Assembly (NCBI GenBank): GCA_963674735.2
Contig: CAXXQS010000002.1
Span: 992,001 to 1,056,000, forward strand
DNA length: 64,000 nucleotides
Reading direction: 5' to 3'
Source: Myxococcota bacterium
Lineage (GTDB): Bacteria > Myxococcota_A > SURF-8
Numbering within the stretch: position 1 is the stretch's first letter; the number at the start of each line of letters is the position of its first letter. Made by a program: the position numbers and the translations under genes. A model generated the notes under the pieces. That model was not told the DNA's origin and searched no databases. It saw only the letters and a list, made by a program, of their open reading frames with translations. Positions 15,835 to 33,654 of the stretch are shown piece by piece.

Positions 15835-15910
15835 AAGGGTCGATAATACGCTGGAGGGGAAAGGCGCGAGGGCCGTTGTCGTCGCGTCGATGACATCGAA
15901 GGAGTGCAAC

Positions 15911-18900
15911 ATGTTACATGAATCCGTCAGCCTCGGTTTGGACATCGGCGCCCTGACCGTCAAATTGGCCATCCTGAACGAGCAGGGTGATGTGATTGAA
16001 CGCCACAGTCAACCGCATCACGGCGAAATCTTCACCACCACCCATGCATTACTACAGGATACGCTGCCAAACCGTCGTATTGCGCGCCTCGGGATCATCG
16101 GCAGCCAGGCCGAACCCGTAGCCCAAACCCTGGGTTTTGCTGCCGGAAACGACGTGGCCGCCATTATCCGAGCCGTCACCGATCAATACGAAAATATCAA
16201 ACAAATCATCGACATCGGCGGTGGATCGCTCTCGATGATCACGCTTAATGATGCCGGTGAGTTCACCGGCTACCAGACCAACACTTTATGTGCGGCCGGA
16301 ACGGGTTCGTTTCTCGACGAACAGGCGGCCCGCCTCGGCATCGAGTATGCTCAATTGGATGACATGCCCGAGGTGGCCAGTCCCCCTTCCATTGCCGCTC
16401 GATGCGCCGTATTCGCCAAATCCGACCTGATTCACCGCCAGCAGGAAGGATACGACAAGCCATCCATGTGGTCCGGGCTGTGCCGCGGCCTGACCCACAC
16501 GATCGTTATGACCTTGTTCAAAGGACGCACTCCCGCAGGAACCACCGCAGTGGTCGGCGGTGTCGCCCAAAACCGCGAAGTCTTACGTTGGCTCAAGGAA
16601 GAATTGAAGGTCGAGTTGATCGCCCCGCCGTCGCCACAAGAAACTGCCGCCGTCGGAGCCGCACTCAACGCTCCCCGATTAGAAGGCGACCTGCCCCTCG
16701 ACCGTTTGCTCGACAGCAATCTGGAGAGTACGGAGAAAACTCGGCGGCCCAAACTCACCCTCACCCGCTCCAATTATCCATCCTTCGAGGTGGAGAAAAC
16801 CGACCTCGACGACGGAAACGAAATCCGTATCAGCCGTTGGCCCGCCGACGGCCACCTGACGGGTTATCTGGGTATCGACATCGGTTCCACCTCCACCAAA
16901 TGCGTCTTGATCGATACCCACGACGAAGTGTTGGTGGATATTTATCGTAAAACCGGTGGCGATCCCATCGGGGCCACCCAGTCGCTTTTCCGAAGTCTTT
17001 CGGCCTTGGTCGCCAAACGCGGCGGCCAAATCGACATTCTCGGTGTCGGCACCACCGGATCGGGCCGAAAACTGGTCGGTGCCGTAACCGGTGCCGATTA
17101 TGTCATCAACGAAATCACCGCTCATGTCACCGGAGCAATGAAGGTCGATCCGAGCATCGACACCATTTTCGAAATCGGCGGCCAGGACGCCAAATACATC
17201 CACGCCGTCGAGGGCCGCCTGCATAACTCCAACATGAACTACGTCTGCGCCGCCGGAACCGGCTCCTTTGTCGAAGAGCTGTCGCGAAAGATGGGATTTG
17301 ACCTCTTTTCACTCGGCGACGAGGTGCTGGGCGTCGAGCCGCCCGTCACCTCCGACCGCTGCACGGTTTTCATGGAACAGGATGCGCGCGCCCTCCTGCG
17401 CAAAGGTTTCACCCCGCGTGAAGTCATGGGCGCCGTCATGGTTTCCGTGGTGCAGAACTACCTGAACAAGGTGGTCGGCAACCGGTATTACTCGAAGGAG
17501 AAGGTGTTTTTTCCAGGGTGCGACCGCCCGCAACAAAAGCCTCGTGGCCGCCTTCGAAACCCTGCTGGGAGTTGAAGTGGTGGTCTCCCCCTACTGCCAC
17601 CAGATGGGTAGCTTCGGCGTCGCCCTGATCGTGAAACAGCGTATGGAAGAAAATCAGGCGAAAACCCGCTTCGTCGGACTTGATTTCGCCGAAAAACCGG
17701 TGACGCTCAGCAAGGATGAATGCAGCCTGTGCGCCAACCGCTGCGCCATTACCTACGCAGAAGTAGACGGACTGACCGAACGACCGAGTTGGGGCTATTT
17801 GTGCGGTCGCGAACCGGACGAAAAGGCCATGCGTATCAACCGTGAATTCGCTTTGATGCGCCAGCGAAACCGCCTGTGGAAAGAAGCAGCCGAATACCTC
17901 CAACCACCGAAGAACGCGCCGGTCATCGGCATGCCGCGCGCCCTTCTGGCACACAGCCATTATCCATTCTGGCGACGCTTCTTCGCCGAACTGGGCTACG
18001 ATCTTCAGCTTTCCGCCCCCACCGATCGCCGTATCATCGAAAAATCCTCCGACTGGGTGGGAGCCGATTATTGTTTTCCGGTCAAGCTGGCCCACGGACA
18101 TTTGCGCGACCTGCTGGAAAACGACACCATCCAACAGGTGTTCATTCCCTTCATGGTCAGCGCCGGTCACACGGAAAAAGCCACCGAAGCCTATTTTTGT
18201 CCTTACAACATCGCCTTACCGGCCGTTCTGGGTTCGGCCATGTGGCTCAACGGCTACGACGAAGAGCGCTTACTGAAAGCCACCTGCGATTTTCGTTGGG
18301 ACGATGCGACAGCCGCAGAGCGCCTCACCGCCGATCTTGGGAAGCGCCTCGGTCGCAATAAACGCAAAGTCGCAGCGGCCTGGAAGGCGGCCAAAAACCT
18401 GATGACGAGCCATGAAGAGACGCTGCGCCGGATCGGTCGTGACGCAACCGCCCAGGCACTCGCCGCCGATAAACCGGCCGTCGTCATTCTGGGACGCCCC
18501 TACAATGTCTATGATCCCGGCGCCAATCTGGCCTTGCCCGAAAAAATCGCCCGGCTCGGGTTGACCGTCCTGCCCATGGATTTTCTGCCGCTCGATGAAG
18601 AAGATATCGGCGAGGAATTCCGCAACATGTATTGGAATTACGGCCGCAAGGTGATCGAAGCAGCGCGCTTCGTGGCGCGTACCCCCAACCTCTACGCCGT
18701 CTGTTTCTCCAATTTTTCCTGCGGTCCCGATAGTTTCATCCAAACCTACACCGAATCCATCATGGGCGAGAAACCCATGCTGATGCTCGAACTCGATGAA
18801 CATGGCGCGGATGCGGGATACCTCACACGACTCGAAGCCTTCGCCGATGTTTTGGCGAACAGCACCATCGAGCGCGTCCCGCGCTACACCTTCAACCGCC

Positions 18901-20120
18901 CGGCGGCGGACCCGGCCTCCGCAAAAGGCCGCACGCTGTGGGTACCCCCCATGGGCGAAGCGGGAGCCGCACTCATCGCAGCCGCGGAGCGCACCGCCGG
19001 TTACGACGCCCAACCTCTTCCGGTTGAGGATCTGAAGGCCTATCTCAAAGGCCGTGCCGTCACCCGCGGTGGCGAATGCCTGCCCTGTCCGGCGACATTG
19101 GGAACCTTCCTCTCCACCGTGGAGCGCACGGGAAACGATCCCTCCAAACACGCGCTTTTCATGCCCACTGCCGAAGGGCCTTGCCGCTTCGGACAATACT
19201 GCACCCTGGATCGCATGGCCATGAACCGCCGCGGCTGGGACACCGTCCCCATTTTGTCGTGGACGTCGGTCGATACGTACGACGGCACCGATGAAGAAAC
19301 ACGCCGCTGGCTGTGGCGCGCCATCGTGCTGAGCGATACCCTTTTCAAACTACGCTGCCGAGTCACCCCCTACGAAACCGATCCCGGTGCGGCAGACCGT
19401 CTCTACTATACTTGGATCGACCGCCTGAGCCGTGCCGTCGAAAACCGGGAAAAGCTCGACCCGGTAATGGTCAGCATGCGCAATGATTTCATGTCCATCC
19501 CTCGCCACGATATCAAAAAGCCGTTGGTCGGTATCGTCGGTGAGATCTACGTACGTCAAAACCGCTTTACCAACCAAGAACTGGTCAAACGTATCGAGCA
19601 GGCCGGAGGCGAAGCCTGGTTGGCTCCGATCACCGAGTGGATTCTCTACACCGCCTACGTAGAAGCCTGGACCCAAGGCTATCGCTCAGCCTCGCTTCTG
19701 GAAAAGATGGGAAACCTGCTCAAGAACCGTTTCATGGCGGGTGAAGAACGACATTTTATGGATCTGGTTTCACCGCTTCTCGATGAACGCCACGAACCCC
19801 CCATCGCCGAAACGGTCCAATCGGGTGAGCGATTCGTCCCTATGGATTTTGAAGGAGAAGTGATCATCACGCTGGGACGCGCCATCGAATACATGAAAAA
19901 CGGAGCCGATCTGGTTATCAACTGCGCGCCTTTCGGCTGCATGCCCGGTTCCATCACCAGCGGGATTTTCCAACGTATCGAGCGCGAATACGGCGTACCG
20001 GTAGCCAATATGTTTTACGATGGGGAAGGCGACCTGAATCGCTTGGTCGATATCTACCTGTCCAACCTCGGGGCGTCCAATGGATTGGCCGCGACGGGCA
20101 CCAACGGCCAGACAGGTTGA
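15911..20120 (+). pseudogene. Acyl-CoA dehydratase activase multidomain protein (two BadF/BcrAD ATPase domains plus DUF2229-like domains), split by one extra base
   Basis: GLDIG, DIGG, CAAGTGSF (x2), RCAVFAKSD, GIDIGSTSTK, CFPVK, FSCGPD, ELDEH, CRFGQY, PFGCMPG. Removing one T from the T6 run at 17507-17512 restores KVFFQGATARNKSLVAAFE and gives about 1402 aa. Confidence 0.85.
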
Positions 20121-25857: not shown

Positions 25858-28455
25858 TCAATAGGGCGTATAGGTCAAGTCGAGACCGGCCGGGTAAGCA
25901 TAGGACACGTAGCTGTCATAACCGTAAACCATCAGACCCACACGACTGTCGCTTGTGAGGGTATGGGTCCCATCGGAAATGGTTTTTTCCATCTTGTACG
26001 CATTCACGTTGCTGATCTGGGTGAAACTGTTCGTAAGCTGGGTGCCATCGAGATAAATCTCGGCATCGGGATTGGTGGTTAGCAGCGTGATGTAGTCGGT
26101 TTTGTAGGTATTGGGAACCAGGAATACGTAGTCGTAACGGAACTGCTCGACCGGGGGCACCAACAAGAAGGCCGGATCGCCTTCCGACGCCGCTGCCGAA
26201 TCCAGATAGTTCTGACCAACCAGGAACTGACCAACCATGATCGGGTGGCCGGGGTTGGATAAGACGATGAAATCATCGCCGGTTTCGATGACACAGGACT
26301 CACCGCGGTCGAGGTCGTGATCGCAGGGCTGCTGGTGGGCGATCTCGGTTTGCGCCTTGATATTGGAAGGCCGCGTGGTGATTTCCGTCCCGTCTTCCAT
26401 GGCAACGATTTTGTAGATGATCTTGTGGTTCGCCAGCGGAGTATGCAGACGAGCGGCGATGTATTGGGTGGTCCAACTCTTGGTCGGGAAAAGCTGCTGT
26501 TCGAGGTGATCGCAGGCCCAACGGTAATGCGGGACAAAACTGCATTCGTTGCCACCGAACACCGCGATCGGTTTGTCGGATTCCACCACGGAACCGGTGA
26601 GTTCCGGCCCGAGGCAATAGTTGTCGCTTGCATACACTCCCGTTCCGGCGATGCAGGTGGCGTTATCGGTAAGCGATGAATCCACCGAACTCCCCACCTG
26701 CAGCACTTCGCCGCGATCGAGGGTGAAGACCTTGGGCGTACCCGGGAACATGGGATCGACACTCAGGCCGCCTTCGGTACGCGCGTTGGCCGTAACGGTG
26801 ACGGTCGTGCCATCGGCTACCGCTACCACGGTAAAGAAAGAACCGATGTTGGGGATATCCGTTCCGCTGCGGGTGACCATCATGGTGCGGTAATTCATCA
26901 CCAGGTATTCGTCGCCAAGGACATGGGTGGGCAGCAACAACGAGGCGTCGTTGGTGTGAGCGTAGGTTCCGTTTTTCTCGGCCGAGATCGGGTTGAATTG
27001 CGACACGGTCACGGGAATGGTCGAATTGAGACGGAAGGCATTTTTCTGTTTATAGCTTTTATAAACCAAACCGGTTGGTGTGGAAGGACCTTCCTTGAAA
27101 GGCAGCCGCACCGTCACGTCTTCTCCGGCAGGAACGCTGATCGATTTGGTAAAGGAAGTGCCCGTGTGCTCGATGGTAACCTGGGCCGCGTAGGTGTCGT
27201 TGGTATTGGAAACGACCACCGCAAATTCCGACTCGTCACCCGATTTGAACGCATCGTCAAGCTGCGGGTTGGGCAAGACCACCGGCCAATACTCACAGCC
27301 GATGTAAGAATCGCTCAGCTCGGCCATGTCGCACAGGCTCAAACATTCTCCGTTTACGCAACGGTTTCCGGTACTACCGGCATTGCAGGGGATCGTCCCG
27401 CTCAACCAGCCCGATCCGTCGTCGTTGCACTGACGGATCGTGCTCTCGTCCACGCATTCGTAAGAATCGGGAATGCAGATGTAAGAGGAAGCCGTGCAGC
27501 CGGAAACCGAATCCTCGACACAAACCTGGCCGGGCGGACATTCTTCGGCCTCTTTGTAGCCGTCACCGGCTTCGTTGCACCATTGTATTTCCGTTTGGCT
27601 GGACGTGCATTTGAAATCGACACTCGGAATACAGCCCGCTTCGACACAACGGTCATCCTCGCAGGTATATCCCAGCGGACAAGCATAGGATTGCGACCAG
27701 TCGGTGCCGGTGGAGTTGCAGACCTGCACTTTGCCGTCGTCGGTGCATCGGGTTTCCGTACCGGCTTCACAAACGATGTCGCCTTCGTCGATGCAGCGAC
27801 CGTCATAGCAACGCTCACCTTCACGGCAGGGTTCGGGGTTTTCCCAGGCCGTGCCATCGGCATTGCAATGCACTACTTCGCCATTGTCATTGCAACGCGT
27901 CTCCACCAGGGAATCGCAAATCTGAGACCCCTCTTCGATGCACTCGCCATCGTAACAATAATCGCCGTCTTCACAGGCGGTGGGATCCGTCCAGCCAGTT
28001 CCGGTGCTGTTGCAGGTTTCCACTTCGCCGTCGTCATTGCAGCGCGTTTCGGTATCGGCAACACAAACTTCCGTCGCCGCCGGTTTGCAGCCGCCGTTTA
28101 TACAGGTGAGCCCCGTCGCACAACTGACGGGCGTATTCCACGCACCGTTGGCCGCACAACTCTGCACCAGCTCGCCCACGCAGATCGCCTCGTTGGGGAT
28201 ACATTCTCCCACCAGATCGCCATCGGTATCGTCGGGCTGGCAAATGCCTTCCAAACAGGACTCGCCATCATTGCAGGCCACCGCCGCACCCCAGGTTCCA
28301 TCTTCGCCGCAAGTGGCAAAAGACGCGTCGTCGGCACAACGGACCTGACCGGCTGTACAAACGGTGTCATCACCTGACCCACCGTTGCAGGCGGGAAATA
28401 AAACAACGGCAAACAGCACCAACATCCAAACGGATATGCATCCTCTCATCAACAT
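25858..28455 (-). CDS. Surface lipoprotein with seven 6-Cys repeats and an IgGFc-binding-protein N-terminal-like domain
   Basis: Lipobox LFPA-C; SYIGCEYW, TNDASLLLP, DHLEQQLFP, GDPAF..PVEQFRYDYVF, SYAYPAG. Confidence 0.82.
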   Translation of the reverse strand: MLMRGCISVWMLVLFAVVLFPACNGGSGDDTVCTAGQVRCADDASFATCGEDGTWGAAVACNDGESCLEGICQPDDTDGDLVGECIPNEAICVGELVQSCAANGAWNTPVSCATGLTCINGGCKPAATEVCVADTETRCNDDGEVETCNSTGTGWTDPTACEDGDYCYDGECIEEGSQICDSLVETRCNDNGEVVHCNADGTAWENPEPCREGERCYDGRCIDEGDIVCEAGTETRCTDDGKVQVCNSTGTDWSQSYACPLGYTCEDDRCVEAGCIPSVDFKCTSSQTEIQWCNEAGDGYKEAEECPPGQVCVEDSVSGCTASSYICIPDSYECVDESTIRQCNDDGSGWLSGTIPCNAGSTGNRCVNGECLSLCDMAELSDSYIGCEYWPVVLPNPQLDDAFKSGDESEFAVVVSNTNDTYAAQVTIEHTGTSFTKSISVPAGEDVTVRLPFKEGPSTPTGLVYKSYKQKNAFRLNSTIPVTVSQFNPISAEKNGTYAHTNDASLLLPTHVLGDEYLVMNYRTMMVTRSGTDIPNIGSFFTVVAVADGTTVTVTANARTEGGLSVDPMFPGTPKVFTLDRGEVLQVGSSVDSSLTDNATCIAGTGVYASDNYCLGPELTGSVVESDKPIAVFGGNECSFVPHYRWACDHLEQQLFPTKSWTTQYIAARLHTPLANHKIIYKIVAMEDGTEITTRPSNIKAQTEIAHQQPCDHDLDRGESCVIETGDDFIVLSNPGHPIMVGQFLVGQNYLDSAAASEGDPAFLLVPPVEQFRYDYVFLVPNTYKTDYITLLTTNPDAEIYLDGTQLTNSFTQISNVNAYKMEKTISDGTHTLTSDSRVGLMVYGYDSYVSYAYPAGLDLTYTPY

Positions 28456-28806
28456 CGCCTGAACCTCCGAACATGGCAAATTTCTTAATACAACCGAGAT
28501 ATTATGGAGGAATGTCCCACTCCTGTAAAGACTTTTTCGCAAGCAGCCGAATCTGGGTGTCAGTATTTAAAGTGTTTTCACTTTCATTCGTGTTAATCGG
28601 GGGAAGCCTATCTCCAGTCAACTTAAACAGTCGTTTAAGATAATCTTTCATAAAAATGATTCCATTGTCAGTTTTTATTTGCTTTCGACCGCTCAATCTG
28701 TACACTTTTCACGCTCGGTGACCACGGCTCATCGCCGATCCGGTCCCACCCGTTTGCGCCGAGCCTTCTTGATTTGGTGCGGATGTTTCAGTCGAGGTTA
28801 AATTCC

Positions 28807-30765
28807 ATGACCGCCCCTCTTGATTTTACTTTCAAGTCCTTCGAAGAGATGACCCCTGCCGATTACGCCATCATCGGGCTCAAGGCAGGTCTGGAAATCC
28901 ATCAACAGCTCAAAACACGGCGCAAACTTTTCTGCCGCTGTCCAGCCGGCTGCTACACCCATGAGGTGGACGCCGAGATCCTGCGACACATGCGGCCGAC
29001 GCTGTCGGAGTTGGGTGAATACGACGGCACGGCGTTGATGGAATTCAAAACCAAGAAGGAAATCGTTTATCTCCTCAAAAACGAGAGTGTGTGTACCTAC
29101 GAGATGGACGACGCTCCCCCGTTTGAAATGGACCCGGAAGCGATCAGAATCGCGCTCGAAGTCTCATTGCTCTATAATCTCAACTTGGTATCGGAAATCC
29201 ATATTGCCCGCAAGCAATACCTCGACGGCTCCATTCCGACCGGCTTTCAGCGAACCACGATTCTGGGCGTCGATGGGGAAGTCCCCTTTAAGAACCGGAC
29301 CTTGCACATCATCCAACTCGGTCTCGAAGAAGACAGTTGCCGCGAAGTAAGCGACGTCGGCCATCGCATCACCTTCCGCACCGACCGCCTGGGCATGCCG
29401 CTGATCGAAACGGTGACCTATCCCGAATTGACGACCCCGGAAGAAGTGGCCGAAGCGGCGGAATTGCTCAGTAGTCTCGTGCGCTCCACCGGGCACGTGC
29501 GCACCGGGGCCGGGGCCGCCCGAGAAGACGTCAATGTCTCCATCAACGGTGGCACACGCATCGAAATCAAAGGCGTCCCGTCGATCAAGCGTATCCCCCG
29601 CCTGGTTTACAACGAAGCCAGACGCCAGCATAACCTATTGAAAATACGAGAAGAACTAAAAAGTAGAAATATTACGCCCGAGACTTTCGAACACGGGCAT
29701 GCCGATGTCACCGGGATTTTGCACGATACGAGCTATATCCCGATCCGGCAAGCCGTGAAAGAGGGTAAGCACGTAGCGGCGGTCCGCCTCAAGGGATTCA
29801 AAGGAATTCTGGCCCACCCCACACAGGAGCACACCTTTTTCGGACAAGAAATATCCGATCGCGTCAAGGTAATCGCCTGTCTGATGGACCACCCCAACAT
29901 TCTGCACTCCGACTCCACCGATCCGGGAATTTCCCGCGGGCAGTGGAATCGTATTCGCAAACGTCTGCGAGGTAATGGCGAGGATAGCTTCGTGGTGGTA
30001 TGGGGGTCGAATGAAGATCTGCAAACCGCCATCCAGGAAATCGCCATTCGGGCCAAAGAAGCCACCGAAGGGGTTCCGTCCGAAACCCGCCAGGCTTTCC
30101 GCGACGGCACCCAGGGCTTCGAACGCATCCTGCCCGGCGCCAACCGCATGTACCCGGATACCGACGAACCGCCTATTTCCATCCCCGATGAGATGGTCGA
30201 GACCGTTCGGGCGGCGTTGCCCGAAACTCCCTGGAAGCGCGTCGAACGTTTACGCGAGTTGGGATTGGACGACACGACGATCGAGATTCTGGCCGATTCG
30301 GCACTCCTACCGCTCTTCGATGCCGTTATGGCGCAATACGACAATCGAATGGACTTCATGGTTAAGTTGATTCGCCGTGATCTGCGCGGCTGGACACGCC
30401 GTGGCCGTCCGGTGAAACGCATCGATGCGGATGTAATGGGCGCGCTATTCGATAGCCTTCGCAGCGGGAAGCTGTTGCCGGAAGCCGTGACCTACATTCT
30501 CGATGCTTTCTTGGACGCACCCGAAAGCGGCATCCAAGCGGCAATCGAACGCTTTACCCCCACGGGCGGCGAAAAAGCCGAATTGGATCGGCTGGTTGGT
30601 GAAGCCAAACATTTGCAGCACGACCTGAAGAGCGTCACGCGACAGGGACGCCAGCGCTATTTCATGGGTCAAATTTTGAGCGACAACGGCCTGCGCGGGC
30701 GCGTGGCGGCCGCCATTGTGGCCGAACGGCTTTGGGAGGTAATGACCGGTGACGACGAACGCTGA
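28807..30765 (+). CDS. gatE: Glu-tRNA(Gln) amidotransferase subunit E (archaeal type)
   Basis: GLKAGLEIHQQL, KLFCRCP, RPTLSELGEYD, DGSIPTGFQRT, LEEDSCR, DRLGMPLIE, DVNVSI, RIEIKGV, central insertion domain, GVPSETR, LPGANRMYPDTD. Confidence 0.92.
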   Translation: MTAPLDFTFKSFEEMTPADYAIIGLKAGLEIHQQLKTRRKLFCRCPAGCYTHEVDAEILRHMRPTLSELGEYDGTALMEFKTKKEIVYLLKNESVCTYEMDDAPPFEMDPEAIRIALEVSLLYNLNLVSEIHIARKQYLDGSIPTGFQRTTILGVDGEVPFKNRTLHIIQLGLEEDSCREVSDVGHRITFRTDRLGMPLIETVTYPELTTPEEVAEAAELLSSLVRSTGHVRTGAGAAREDVNVSINGGTRIEIKGVPSIKRIPRLVYNEARRQHNLLKIREELKSRNITPETFEHGHADVTGILHDTSYIPIRQAVKEGKHVAAVRLKGFKGILAHPTQEHTFFGQEISDRVKVIACLMDHPNILHSDSTDPGISRGQWNRIRKRLRGNGEDSFVVVWGSNEDLQTAIQEIAIRAKEATEGVPSETRQAFRDGTQGFERILPGANRMYPDTDEPPISIPDEMVETVRAALPETPWKRVERLRELGLDDTTIEILADSALLPLFDAVMAQYDNRMDFMVKLIRRDLRGWTRRGRPVKRIDADVMGALFDSLRSGKLLPEAVTYILDAFLDAPESGIQAAIERFTPTGGEKAELDRLVGEAKHLQHDLKSVTRQGRQRYFMGQILSDNGLRGRVAAAIVAERLWEVMTGDDER

Positions 30766-32140
30766 GAAGTACAAAGGTTACCGCAATACCGCCAAGGCCA
30801 AAATGATCGAGTGCGGCGTGCAGGTTTGGAGCGATGTGGAAGCCCACACGGAACGGGGTGTCTTCAAGGGGATCATCCTCCCGCGCTCTGAAACCGCCGA
30901 CGATCGACACATCGTGCTCAAGCTGATCAGCGGTTACAACGTCGGACTCGCGGCGGAAAAAATCGTCTCGATGAAGCAGGTGGGCTATCGCGCCGCCAAC
31001 TACCACATCCCCGAAAAGGAATTCCCCTTCGATCCGGCCAAACGCAAGGTGCGCCTGTTCGGGACCGGCGGCACCATCGCCTCGCGCCTCGATTATCGCA
31101 CCGGCGCGGTCATCCCGGCTTTCACGCCGGGTGAACTATATGGCTCCGTACCGGAGCTGGCCGATATCTGCAATCTGGAAACGGAAAAGCTGTTCGGCGT
31201 TTTCTCCGAAAACATGGGGCCCGAACAGTACATCACGACCGCTCTGCAATGCGGGGAGGCCATCCGCGCGGGCTATGACGGCATCGTCATCGGCCACGGC
31301 ACCGATACCATGCACCACACCGCCGCCGTCTTGTCGTTCATGGTGCAGAATTCACCGATTCCCATTGTAATGGTGGGCAGCCAGCGCAGTTCCGACCGGC
31401 CCAGTTCCGACGCCGCCCGCAATCTCATCCACGCAGTCACCGCCGCCGCCCACGGCGACCTGGCCGAGGTGATGGTCTGCATGTTCGGCCCGACCTCCGA
31501 CGAATACAACCTACTGCATCGCGGCACGCGCGTCCGCAAAATGCATTCGTCCTACCGGTCGACCTTCCGCACCTTGTCCGATGTCCCGCTGGGTAAAGTG
31601 GAAAACAAGAAAATCGAAACCTTCACCGACGACTACAAGCGCCGCCGCAGCGACCGAGACGTGGACATCAAGGCTGTTTTCGACGACCGCGTAGCGATCG
31701 TGTATTACTACCCCAACATGAAACCCGACATCATCACCTCGCTGGTCGACAACGGCTACAAAGGAATCGTGATCGCCGGAACCGGCTTGGGGCACGTCAA
31801 CAAACCGCTGTACCCGGTGCTGCGAGACGCCTGCGAAAAAGGCGTGCACATTTACATGACGGTGCAGACACTTTATGGTTTCGTTCAGATGTACGTATAC
31901 GAAACCGGTCGCGAACTGATGCAACTGGGCGTCGTCCCGGCGGCCAACATGCTGCCGGAAGTGGCCTACGTCAAGTTGGGCTGGGTACTCGGCCAAACTC
32001 ATGATCGCGATGAAGTACAGCGCCTGATGCTGACTCCCATCGCCCACGAAATCACCGAGCGCGAACCGCACAACGGTTATCTCATCCTCCAGGGCGGTTT
32101 GCCCGAGGTGGAAGAGTTCTTGTCCAAAATCCGAAAATAG
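30749..32140 (+). CDS. gatD: Glu-tRNA(Gln) amidotransferase subunit D (archaeal type)
   Basis: GatD N-domain (IVLKLISGYNVG) plus asparaginase domain GTGGTIASRLDYRTGAV, HGTDTM, GSQRSSDRPSSD, RKMHSS, GTGLGHV, MLPEVAYVKLGW; 17-nt overlap with gatE. Confidence 0.92.
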   Translation: MTTNAEKYKGYRNTAKAKMIECGVQVWSDVEAHTERGVFKGIILPRSETADDRHIVLKLISGYNVGLAAEKIVSMKQVGYRAANYHIPEKEFPFDPAKRKVRLFGTGGTIASRLDYRTGAVIPAFTPGELYGSVPELADICNLETEKLFGVFSENMGPEQYITTALQCGEAIRAGYDGIVIGHGTDTMHHTAAVLSFMVQNSPIPIVMVGSQRSSDRPSSDAARNLIHAVTAAAHGDLAEVMVCMFGPTSDEYNLLHRGTRVRKMHSSYRSTFRTLSDVPLGKVENKKIETFTDDYKRRRSDRDVDIKAVFDDRVAIVYYYPNMKPDIITSLVDNGYKGIVIAGTGLGHVNKPLYPVLRDACEKGVHIYMTVQTLYGFVQMYVYETGRELMQLGVVPAANMLPEVAYVKLGWVLGQTHDRDEVQRLMLTPIAHEITEREPHNGYLILQGGLPEVEEFLSKIRK

Positions 32141-32160
32141 ATACAATCGAACCCCGTTTT

Positions 32161-32194
32161 AACGACCGTCAGCCTGCGGCGCGGTCGTTTTTTC
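32161..32194 (+). terminator. Rho-independent terminator after gatD
   Basis: AACGACCG..CGGTCGTT followed by a T-run. Confidence 0.7.
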
Positions 32195-32334
32195 GTTTCG
32201 ACCGCCCAGCCCAAAATCCTTTCCTCCCAAAAACAAAAAAGACGCGCCGCGACCAAAGGTTTTTGCCTGCAGCCCTCCTTCTCTGCTAAACTGCAGGCTA
32301 TTTCGACACGAAAAAAACCAAATGGAGGATCGCC

Positions 32335-33120
32335 ATGCCGGAGTTCACCACCCTGACGACCGAAAGCCGCGACCGTGTTTTTTGCATCGGCTTTAACCGA
32401 CCCGATAAGTTCAACTCCTTCAATCTGGCCATGCTGAAGGAATTGGCCGAAGCATACACTCTCTTCGAAAACGATCCCGAGCAACGTTGCGCGCTGGTCT
32501 TCGCCCACGGCAAACACTTCACCGCCGGTCTCGATTTATCCGAAGTCGGTCCGGCCGTGGCCCAAGGCGCGCCCCTGTTCCCCGCCGGTTCCGTGGATCC
32601 CATGGACCTGATGGAACCGCGCCGCAAAAAACCGGTGGTGATCGCCATGCAGGGCTATAGTTTCACCATCGGAGTCGAATTGGCTCTGGCCTGCGATATC
32701 CGACTGGCGGCCGACGACGCCGTCTTCGCCCAGATGGAAGTCTGCCGAGGCATCATGCCCTTCGGCGGTGCGACGCTGCGTTTCTGGCAGATGAGCGGCT
32801 GGGGCAACGCCATGCGCTACGTCTTGACCGGTGAACGCTTTCCGGCTGCCGAAGCTTTGCGTATTGGACTGGTGCAGGAAATCGTCCCGGCTGAACAGCT
32901 TTTCGAACGCGGACTGGAAGTCGCGACCACGATTGCCAAACAAGCGCCGCTGGCGGTGCAGGCGGCCCGCCGGGCCTCCATGGTGGCCATGGAAAAAGGA
33001 CGCGAAGCCGCGCTTCAGGAATTGATGCAGGAAGCGACCGGCCTGATGGCTTCAGAAGATGCGGTCGAGGGAATGATGAGTTTCATCGAGCGCCGCGAAG
33101 CGGATTTTAAAGGTCGCTAA
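32335..33120 (+). CDS. Enoyl-CoA hydratase/crotonase family protein
   Basis: NRPDKFN, FTAGLDL, GVELALACD, EVCRGIMPFGG, EALRIGLV. Confidence 0.92.
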   Translation: MPEFTTLTTESRDRVFCIGFNRPDKFNSFNLAMLKELAEAYTLFENDPEQRCALVFAHGKHFTAGLDLSEVGPAVAQGAPLFPAGSVDPMDLMEPRRKKPVVIAMQGYSFTIGVELALACDIRLAADDAVFAQMEVCRGIMPFGGATLRFWQMSGWGNAMRYVLTGERFPAAEALRIGLVQEIVPAEQLFERGLEVATTIAKQAPLAVQAARRASMVAMEKGREAALQELMQEATGLMASEDAVEGMMSFIERREADFKGR

Positions 33121-33247
33121 GCGGATCAGCCGACATCGGGGCTTTGTCAATCTTCAGCGAATCCGGCCCACGACGGTCCCGACAGAGACGGCACGCAAAC
33201 CCTTGACTCCCGACTTTGAAAAAACACATGGCGAATGTGCGGAGAAA

Positions 33248-33463
33248 TCAGAGCGTTCTCGCCAATAACCAAGCCGTCCCCATAATCGAAGCGGCGATAA
33301 TAAGCTGCCAAGTCCACAGTTTAGGCGCGGGTCTATCCATTTTTTCCGTCCAGATATAGCCCTTTCCCCGGCATACCGGGCAGGGCAAGCCCAATGGCTC
33401 ATCCCCCTCGACAAACCGCAACCCCATACACTGCGGGCAGGCGACACGCACCACCTGTCCCAT
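33248..33463 (-). CDS. Small Zn-finger protein with C-terminal TM helix
   Basis: CPQCMG..CPVCRGKG (DnaJ-type CxxCxG pair); AAGGGG RBS before ATG 33463. Confidence 0.6.
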   Translation of the reverse strand: MGQVVRVACPQCMGLRFVEGDEPLGLPCPVCRGKGYIWTEKMDRPAPKLWTWQLIIAASIMGTAWLLARTL

Positions 33464-33654
33464 CGTAGCCCCCTTTTCCGGAATCGACCGCAGATACCCC
33501 ACCGCGCAAGCCGATTCCGCTTCCATCAAACAGATTTGTTATCCAAATTTATACCCGCTCCAATTATCCCCACAAGTAATACAATTGCAAGAAATATTTG
33601 ATGGAAAAACGACGATTTACGGACATGTAAGTCTAAGATTGGAAGTGGACGCGT

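Follow-up and report, generated by a model that had tools for sequence, protein, structure and literature searches.

How an amidotransferase that is regarded as archaeal comes to be encoded in a bacterial chromosome, and what it does there, are the questions raised by gatE and gatD, two overlapping genes at positions 28807 to 32140 of a 64,000-nucleotide stretch (the window) of a Myxococcota genome (GenBank assembly GCA_963674735.2, contig CAXXQS010000002.1, positions 992,001 to 1,056,000). Reviews up to 2022 call GatDE archaea-only and base arguments on the last universal common ancestor and on the co-evolution of tRNA-Gln on it (PMC2330236, PMC9499178). The archaea-specific label given to the pair in the first-pass annotation of this DNA is thus what reviews state, while the databases are out of step with it, hundreds of bacterial genomes being annotated with GatDE. 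As judged from the sequences, the operon is almost certainly a functional member of a bacterial GatDE clade. The window is a clean example of a lineage that coexists with glutaminyl-tRNA synthetase (GlnRS, in 22 of 25 other carriers), usually together with a glutamyl-tRNA synthetase (GluRS) that looks discriminating, and the question it makes testable is what job an amidotransferase has in a cell seemingly without mischarged tRNA.

Both genes were assigned with the NCBIfam equivalog models. Window GatE scores 540 bits with NF003107 (cut-off of 456) and 469 bits with TIGR00134 (cut-off of 320), and the top model of its paralogue GatB reaches 146 bits (its cut-off is 338, and those of the GatB models are all at least 315). 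GatD scores 506 bits with TIGR02153 (cut-off of 324) versus 373 for type I asparaginase, and Pfam identifies the domains GatD_N (PF18195), Asparaginase (PF00710), and Asparaginase_C (PF17763). It is the GatE and GatD models that win, and not those of GatB or asparaginase, the alternative grouping that the first-pass annotation had considered fatal to its assignment. Residues 19 to 646 of GatE align to the GatE of P. abyssi (1zq1_C, 358 bits) and residues 19 to 640 to that of M. thermautotrophicus (2d6f_C, 324 bits). The alignments of GatD reach 397 bits with 1zq1_A and 382 bits with 2d6f_A, and its GTGGTIAS, HGTDTM, and VRKMH motifs line up with both chains; which of the GatD residues make up the Thr/Thr-Lys-Asp site we take, as an assumption, from the asparaginases.

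The catalytic core of GatE appears to be intact. His32, Glu174, and Glu201 correspond, in a gapless alignment, to the Mg2+ ligands His15, Glu157, and Glu184 of M. thermautotrophicus GatE, and they are unchanged across 16 bacterial GatE sequences. The M. thermautotrophicus enzyme is dead when any of these three residues is lost (PMC2330236). The alignments to 1zq1_C and 2d6f_C also cover the regions of the AspRS-like insertion domain (AspRS being aspartyl-tRNA synthetase) and of the YqeY-like C-terminal tail, yet Pfam calls GatB_N alone in window GatE, with GAD and GatB_Yqey recorded for some bacterial homologues only. Conservation of GatE is lowest in the C-terminal tail, which binds tRNA.

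Other motifs set the protein apart from its archaeal counterparts. The differences that the first-pass annotation had listed are real: window GatE has YEMDDAPP, RKQYLDGSIPTG, and GAAREDVN where M. thermautotrophicus GatE (2d6f_C) has VEADEEPP, RKQVIDGSNTGG, and GTIRQDLN, and the three window motifs are invariant in the 16 bacterial sequences. In addition, the bacterial clade has 13 fixed columns in the alignment whose residues are present in at most 5% of 33 archaeal rows, the Heimdallarchaeota clade being scored apart in this count. One of them is Ile143, in GSIPTG.

The pair is a resident of this genome. In the Logan contigs, two runs of one sample each gave a single 21.6-kb piece that spans positions 27500 to 33500 with zero differences (this may be the source sample, in which case the assembly is independent and the DNA is not), and a second sample from the same study covered 25 of 30 bins. 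In an even sample of the phylum, GatE was present in 39 of 251 genomes, in 38 of them over the cut-off: all 5 of the same family, all 4 of the same order, and all 13 of one other family had it, and most other families had none, a pattern that indicates stable inheritance within lineages. Since the Logan contigs show no differences and all the same-family and same-order genomes sampled carry GatE, the contig is not chimeric at the locus, which disposes of the artefact that the first-pass annotation had named as one of two ways to refute it.

A scan with one genome per species returned at least 575 stretches that encode a GatE relative, of which we compared the best 80. These belong to Myxococcota, Caldithrix, Ignavibacteria, Kapabacteria, Aminicenantes and Acidobacteriota, Bacteroidota, Latescibacterota, Neomarinimicrobiota, Zhuqueibacterota, and others. 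For GatE, metagenome-assembled genomes (MAGs) of Myxococcota give the best matches, at 60 to 67% identity, followed by Calditrichia, Latescibacteria, Krumholzibacteria, and Phycisphaerae, at 52 to 57%. These homologues already carry the GatE name in the source databases, as the first-pass annotation had suspected. Across the 80 loci, identity to the window proteins is 66 to 82% for GatD (across phyla) and 50 to 66% for GatE.

The organization of the locus is equally well kept. In 76 of the 80 loci gatE is followed by a gatD of the same orientation; three of the remaining loci end at a contig edge, and in the last one (L023) no gatD is present within 6 kb. Short overlaps or gaps between the two genes are typical: of 61 pairs delimited with a crude caller of open reading frames, 15 have a spacing of -4 nt and 12 one of -1 nt. 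In L069 and L073 there is about 1.5 kb between the end of the gatE match and gatD, room for an inserted gene. A conserved neighbour that could hint at function was sought and dropped: counting the window's own stretch, the next family after gatD is seen in no more than 9 of 81 loci, and the annotated examples, which cover the commonest neighbour families, are H+-PPase, MFS, GH123, PadR, and similar unrelated genes. An apparent GatE fusion in Aminicenantes (L048) was also discarded, as the long upstream open frame, probably a spurious product of high G+C content, contains no Pfam domain.

To place the clade, GatE was searched against the 50%-identity representatives of 1.84 billion proteins. 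The scores show a step, from 451 to 897 bits for full-length matches at 40 to 64% identity down to 383 bits or less at 31 to 39%, and identity to the archaeal GatE representatives is 31 to 40%. The relatives of the representative at 36% (P0167) are Asgard and TACK archaea, and those of the one at 40% (P0154) are Heimdallarchaeota. In a tree of 78 rows (IQ-TREE, LG+C20 with posterior mean site frequencies, short search, support by SH-aLRT, the Shimodaira-Hasegawa-like approximate likelihood ratio test, only), all named bacteria plus 15 further representatives form a clade of 35 rows with a support of 100, in which window GatE groups with the Myxococcota sequences. One GatE labelled as "Thermoplasmata archaeon" (P0481, on a 5.16-Mb contig) falls in the bacterial clade, and its label is probably wrong. 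A monophyletic clade that is only 31 to 40% identical to archaeal GatE fits an old resident bacterial lineage, as the first-pass annotation had proposed.

The nearest archaeal neighbour of the bacterial clade is a Heimdallarchaeota/Asgard clade of nine rows (support of 100), joined to it by a node with a support of 97, while the other archaea stand apart; a tree of 34 rows repeats this layout with supports of 100, 100, and 97. The Heimdallarchaeota proteins also have 6 of the 13 bacterial signature residues in common, including Met62, Met78, Ile143, and Glu180. They differ in being 40% identical to window GatE and in the long stem between both clades, of 0.36 to 0.63 changes per site. An approximately unbiased (AU) test on the 34 rows, for a group defined after the first tree was in view, did not reject the arrangement in which archaeal GatE is one clade and the bacterial clade lies outside (p=0.53). 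With this value, and with a root that hangs on a single long GatB branch, two root placements are compatible with the data: the bacterial clade could be nested in archaea, having been transferred to or from a Heimdall-like lineage, or it could be an ancient sister lineage. On a bolder reading, archaeal GatE as a whole would have the bacterial clade as its sister, and GatDE would be older than the split of the two domains, a proposal of Sheppard and Soll as cited in PMC9499178. The link to Heimdallarchaeota and the position of the root matter for the question of whether both domains inherited GatDE from their ancestor or one acquired it from the other.

The window is, then, a further member of a group that is annotated in databases, uncharacterised, and absent from the searched literature, and it is ordinary within its lineage. 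Supplements aside, no treatment of bacterial GatDE as a topic was found in the searchable literature, in which the phrase "bacterial GatDE" had no match. Judged by the titles listed, none of the papers since 2013 with "GatDE" is about bacteria, and none of the matches listed links gatD or "tRNA amidotransferase" to Ignavibacteria, Caldithrix, Melioribacter, or Aminicenantes.

Compared with archaeal GatDE (M. thermautotrophicus, 2D6F; P. abyssi, 1ZQ1), the window pair has the same two subunits with full-length alignments, the same GatE Mg2+ ligands, a GatD_N domain and asparaginase-type motifs in GatD, and equivalog scores over the cut-off. The differences are the low identity and the 13 clade-fixed substitutions of GatE, the coupled gatE-gatD operon of 76 of the 80 bacterial loci, and the setting. 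As GatDE is described in archaea, the hosts lack GlnRS and have a non-discriminating GluRS, whereas here there is a GlnRS plus a bacterial GluRS with the Arg residue discussed below; the archaeal enzyme has as its substrate a tRNA-Gln with the pair A1-U72, whereas the host tRNA-Gln has U1-A72. Bacterial GatCAB, also present in the genome, shares the chemistry and recognizes tRNA with U1-A72 (PMC2330236). It differs in that GatB, whose models stay far below their cut-offs on window GatE, has an amidase-type partner, while GatE appears to have an insertion domain and has an asparaginase-type partner. The GatCAB of Bdellovibrio, Thermus, and Deinococcus is a parallel, as it persists beside GlnRS and asparaginyl-tRNA synthetase (AsnRS), although there GatCAB serves asparagine synthesis (PMC4206432), while here the enzyme is GatDE and the host has genes for asparagine synthetase.

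What the enzyme does can be predicted from its archaeal relatives. With both subunits encoded and overlapping here, and gatD 3' of gatE in nearly all loci, the products are predicted to form a GatDE pair. As in the archaeal enzyme, GatE would bind a mischarged tRNA and phosphorylate the side-chain carboxylate using ATP and Mg2+, GatD would hydrolyse Gln or Asn, and the ammonia would move by an internal tunnel to GatE, which would amidate the intermediate. The substrate would most likely be Glu-tRNA(Gln) with the bacterial U1-A72 pair, and the enzyme would be a second route, indirect or corrective, to Gln-tRNA(Gln) besides GlnRS. In the modelling reported in PMC2330236, the insertion domain of GatE fits the GluRS complex and not the AspRS complex; window GatE, for which Pfam reports only GatB_N, appears from the structure alignments to keep this domain, which would link it to Gln. 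On balance we lean toward this canonical role as the most economical one, with an enzyme that would serve U1-A72 tRNA-Gln in parallel to GlnRS or for correction.

The host genome, of 5.26 Mb and 94% complete, provides several points that can be held against that role. The inventory called for by the first-pass annotation turned up gatCAB, glnS, asnS, one gltX, and tRNA-Gln with U1-A72. GatA (602 bits) and GatB (548 bits) are encoded side by side, GlnRS is over the cut-off with 737 bits, AsnRS scores 485 bits, and there is one bacterial copy of GluRS (563 bits). As GlnRS, GatA, GatB, and AsnRS are already in the genome, the canonical GatDE reaction is not needed. Both tRNA-Gln genes carry U1-A72 and not A1-U72, and no difference in tRNA-Gln features was found between 15 GatDE-positive and 15 GatDE-negative genomes of the phylum; all tRNA-Gln from these 30 genomes have U1-A72. 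No tRNA gene lies within 6 kb of the pair in the 80 related loci.

A further point that weighs against a canonical role concerns the source of the mischarged tRNA. A single change of Arg358 to Gln makes the GluRS of T. thermophilus non-discriminating (PMC2978374). We mapped the Arg358 column by aligning the GluRS of one carrier (G016) to 1j09_A and with a MAFFT alignment of 36 GluRS, and confirmed the copy numbers by a direct gltX search. The single GluRS of the host has Arg at this position, which suggests, short of proof, a discriminating enzyme, and because this sole GluRS carries Arg, no classical source of Glu-tRNA(Gln) is visible in the host. Among other carriers, 12 of the 14 GatDE genomes without GatB have Arg-type GluRS only, the exceptions being an extra His-type copy in G005 and a Tyr-type one in G024, while in 6 of the 10 assessable GatB-bearing genomes there is a second GluRS with a residue other than Arg (E, K, K, E, S, Y); two genomes, G006 and G011, stood outside this assessment. 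The classical feeder enzyme of the amidotransferase tracks GatCAB and not GatDE. In the Latescibacterota genome G006, the sole GluRS match (L113, G006:C1:3300200-3302750) covers model positions 3 to 332 in a frame of 706 residues, with no recognisable anticodon-binding domain after the match.

The tRNAs also decide how far the claim of a different specificity or role can go. Archaeal GatDE recognizes the A1-U72 of tRNA-Gln and rejects tRNA-Asn by the first-pair rule (PMC2330236). As the host tRNA-Gln has U1-A72, tRNA recognition must differ from the archaeal rule, and to this extent the suspicion voiced in the first-pass annotation stands; a different specificity or role beyond that is only possible. 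The two tRNA-Gln of the genome are not alike, as tRNA-Gln(CUG) has A73 and C2-G71 and tRNA-Gln(UUG) has G73 and G2-C71. The former lies 8 nt from tRNA-Glu(CUC) (C1:1408936-1409092, outside the window), and this arrangement, with its features, is found again in other members of the phylum with or without GatDE. A tRNA-Gln dedicated to GatDE was considered and rejected, as the same CUG tRNA occurs in GatDE-negative genomes and some GatDE-positive ones have G73.

We have also analyzed the gene content of 25 other GatDE-bearing genomes, picked for taxonomic spread and mostly MAGs, so that absence means not found. GlnRS was over the cut-off in 22, GatB in 10 (plus one split over two contigs), and AsnRS in 23, while an AsnB-family gene was present in 17 and AsnA in 1. 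In the phylum sample, GatB was present in 16 of 39 GatE-positive versus 156 of 212 GatE-negative genomes, with the reservation that kin are not independent in such counts. From these figures, GatDE is neither a simple replacement of GatCAB nor restricted to genomes in which an indirect route is required. One carrier (G009) has neither GlnRS nor GatB found, and there GatDE would be the sole route to Gln-tRNA(Gln) and essential. In two others (G004:C180 and G019:C4) gatE is 0.7 to 2.5 kb from glnS, on the opposite strand, which is not so in the window's genome.

With GlnRS, AsnRS, and only an Arg-type GluRS, it is conceivable, if on the doubtful side, that GatDE has no canonical substrate and is kept across at least six phyla for the amidation of Asp-tRNA(Asn) or another acyl-tRNA, or for a GluRS complex that alters tRNA choice. 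Mischarging of tRNA-Gln by the Arg-type GluRS that occurs only with GatDE present would explain the puzzle. As a source of Glu-tRNA(Gln) is not visible, another substrate is possible.

The first form of this departure is that GatDE uses some other acyl-tRNA as its substrate or works outside translation, for example by providing an amidated aminoacyl-tRNA for a secondary pathway. It would explain the persistence of the pair where a mischarging synthetase is not visible, as in the own genome and the 12 GatB-less genomes with Arg-type GluRS alone, and it is in line with the 13 clade-fixed columns, Ile143 in GSIPTG among them, that are rare in non-Heimdall archaeal rows, and with a tRNA-binding tail that is the least conserved part of GatE. 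The catalytic core is unchanged, however, and none of the loci has a conserved neighbour that would point toward another pathway, so we consider it unlikely.

No less unlikely is a clade that moved to Asp-tRNA(Asn), or added it, with GatDE used for tRNA-dependent asparagine synthesis. The host tRNA-Asn has U1-A72 like its tRNA-Gln, so the first-pair rejection of tRNA-Asn seen in archaea cannot apply, and an amidotransferase beside AsnRS and GlnRS has the precedent mentioned above (PMC4206432). Moreover, 5 of the 14 GatB-less carriers (G012, G013, G016, G023, and G024) have AsnRS with no AsnB-family gene or AsnA found. Those five genomes have one bacterial AspRS each, though, and no archaeal-type non-discriminating AspRS over the cut-off, and the insertion domain of GatE is predicted to clash with AspRS. 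An AsnB-family gene is present in 17 of the 25 other carriers, and the own genome has two in addition to GatCAB. These two are adjacent (C2:1924719-1929349), and the genome also contains two bacterial-type AspRS-like genes (C1:24333-25985 and C1:1617869-1619515); together with AsnRS and GatCAB they make up an unusually redundant set for Asn and Gln decoding.

That the operon is a redundant relic heading for loss, with no present function, is very improbable: the genome has every alternative route, but the frames are intact, the catalytic residues are invariant, GatD is 66 to 82% identical across phyla, 76 of 80 loci retain the operon, and GatE is in all nine genomes sampled from its family and order. 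Least credible of all is that the locus came recently from an archaeon, or that archaeal DNA was wrongly joined to a bacterial contig in assembly or binning, for which speaks the description of GatDE as an archaeal signature protein found in archaea only (PMC2330236 and PMC9499178) and against which stand the closest archaeal GatE at 40% identity versus 64 to 67% for Myxococcota, a host-like codon usage, the matching Logan contigs, and the related genomes with the same operon; neither a recent import nor a chimera is the case.

Within the window, which sits on a contig of 2.37 Mb, gatE occupies 28807..30765 (+, 652 residues, tRNA-dependent kinase/amidotransferase subunit, by profile scores and structure alignments) and gatD 30749..32140 (+, 463 residues, asparaginase-type glutaminase subunit, by TIGR02153, Pfam domains, and structure alignments). 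Neither open reading frame has internal stops, and their coordinates place the GTG start of gatD ahead of the gatE stop, with an overlap of 17 nt (30749..30765, +) that points to translational coupling; the description of the genes as intact and overlapping in the order gatE, gatD is accurate. The start of gatE is likely ATG 28807, as a Shine-Dalgarno-like GAGG lies 10 nt ahead of it (28793..28796, +, by direct reading of the sequence) and homologues align from residues 1 to 9 of the 652-residue form; an alternative in-frame TTG at 28774 (+) would give 663 residues. Its intergenic leader (28543..28806, +) follows a gene on the opposite strand and has no sigma-70-like site on the + strand, and a riboswitch or leader RNA before gatE was dropped as a candidate, with no Rfam family matching at an E value of 1 or less in 28300-32500. 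The terminator of its own that the first-pass annotation gave the operon is the weak point of that description: 36 nt past the gatD stop there is only a weak hairpin with a T-run (32176..32199, +; 5-bp stem with three G-C pairs), and such sites are no commoner in the region than in shuffles (4 versus 5.3).

The surroundings are those of an ordinary bacterial chromosome, as had been noticed, with genes for an acyl-CoA dehydrogenase, an IgGFc-binding-like secreted protein, and an enoyl-CoA hydratase as neighbours. The host-like codon style is borne out by the G+C content at third codon positions, 0.68 in gatE and 0.77 in gatD versus 0.47 to 0.77 in the remaining open reading frames of the window. 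The gene divergent from gatE (25858-28542, -) codes for a protein of 894 residues that has numerous Cys-rich repeats and, at its C-terminus, an IgGFc_binding domain (PF17517, 237 bits). Further away, at 15890-20120 (+), the window contains a gene pair for a BcrAD_BadFG ATPase and a DUF2229 "CoA enzyme activase" protein, with a TetR regulator ahead of them.

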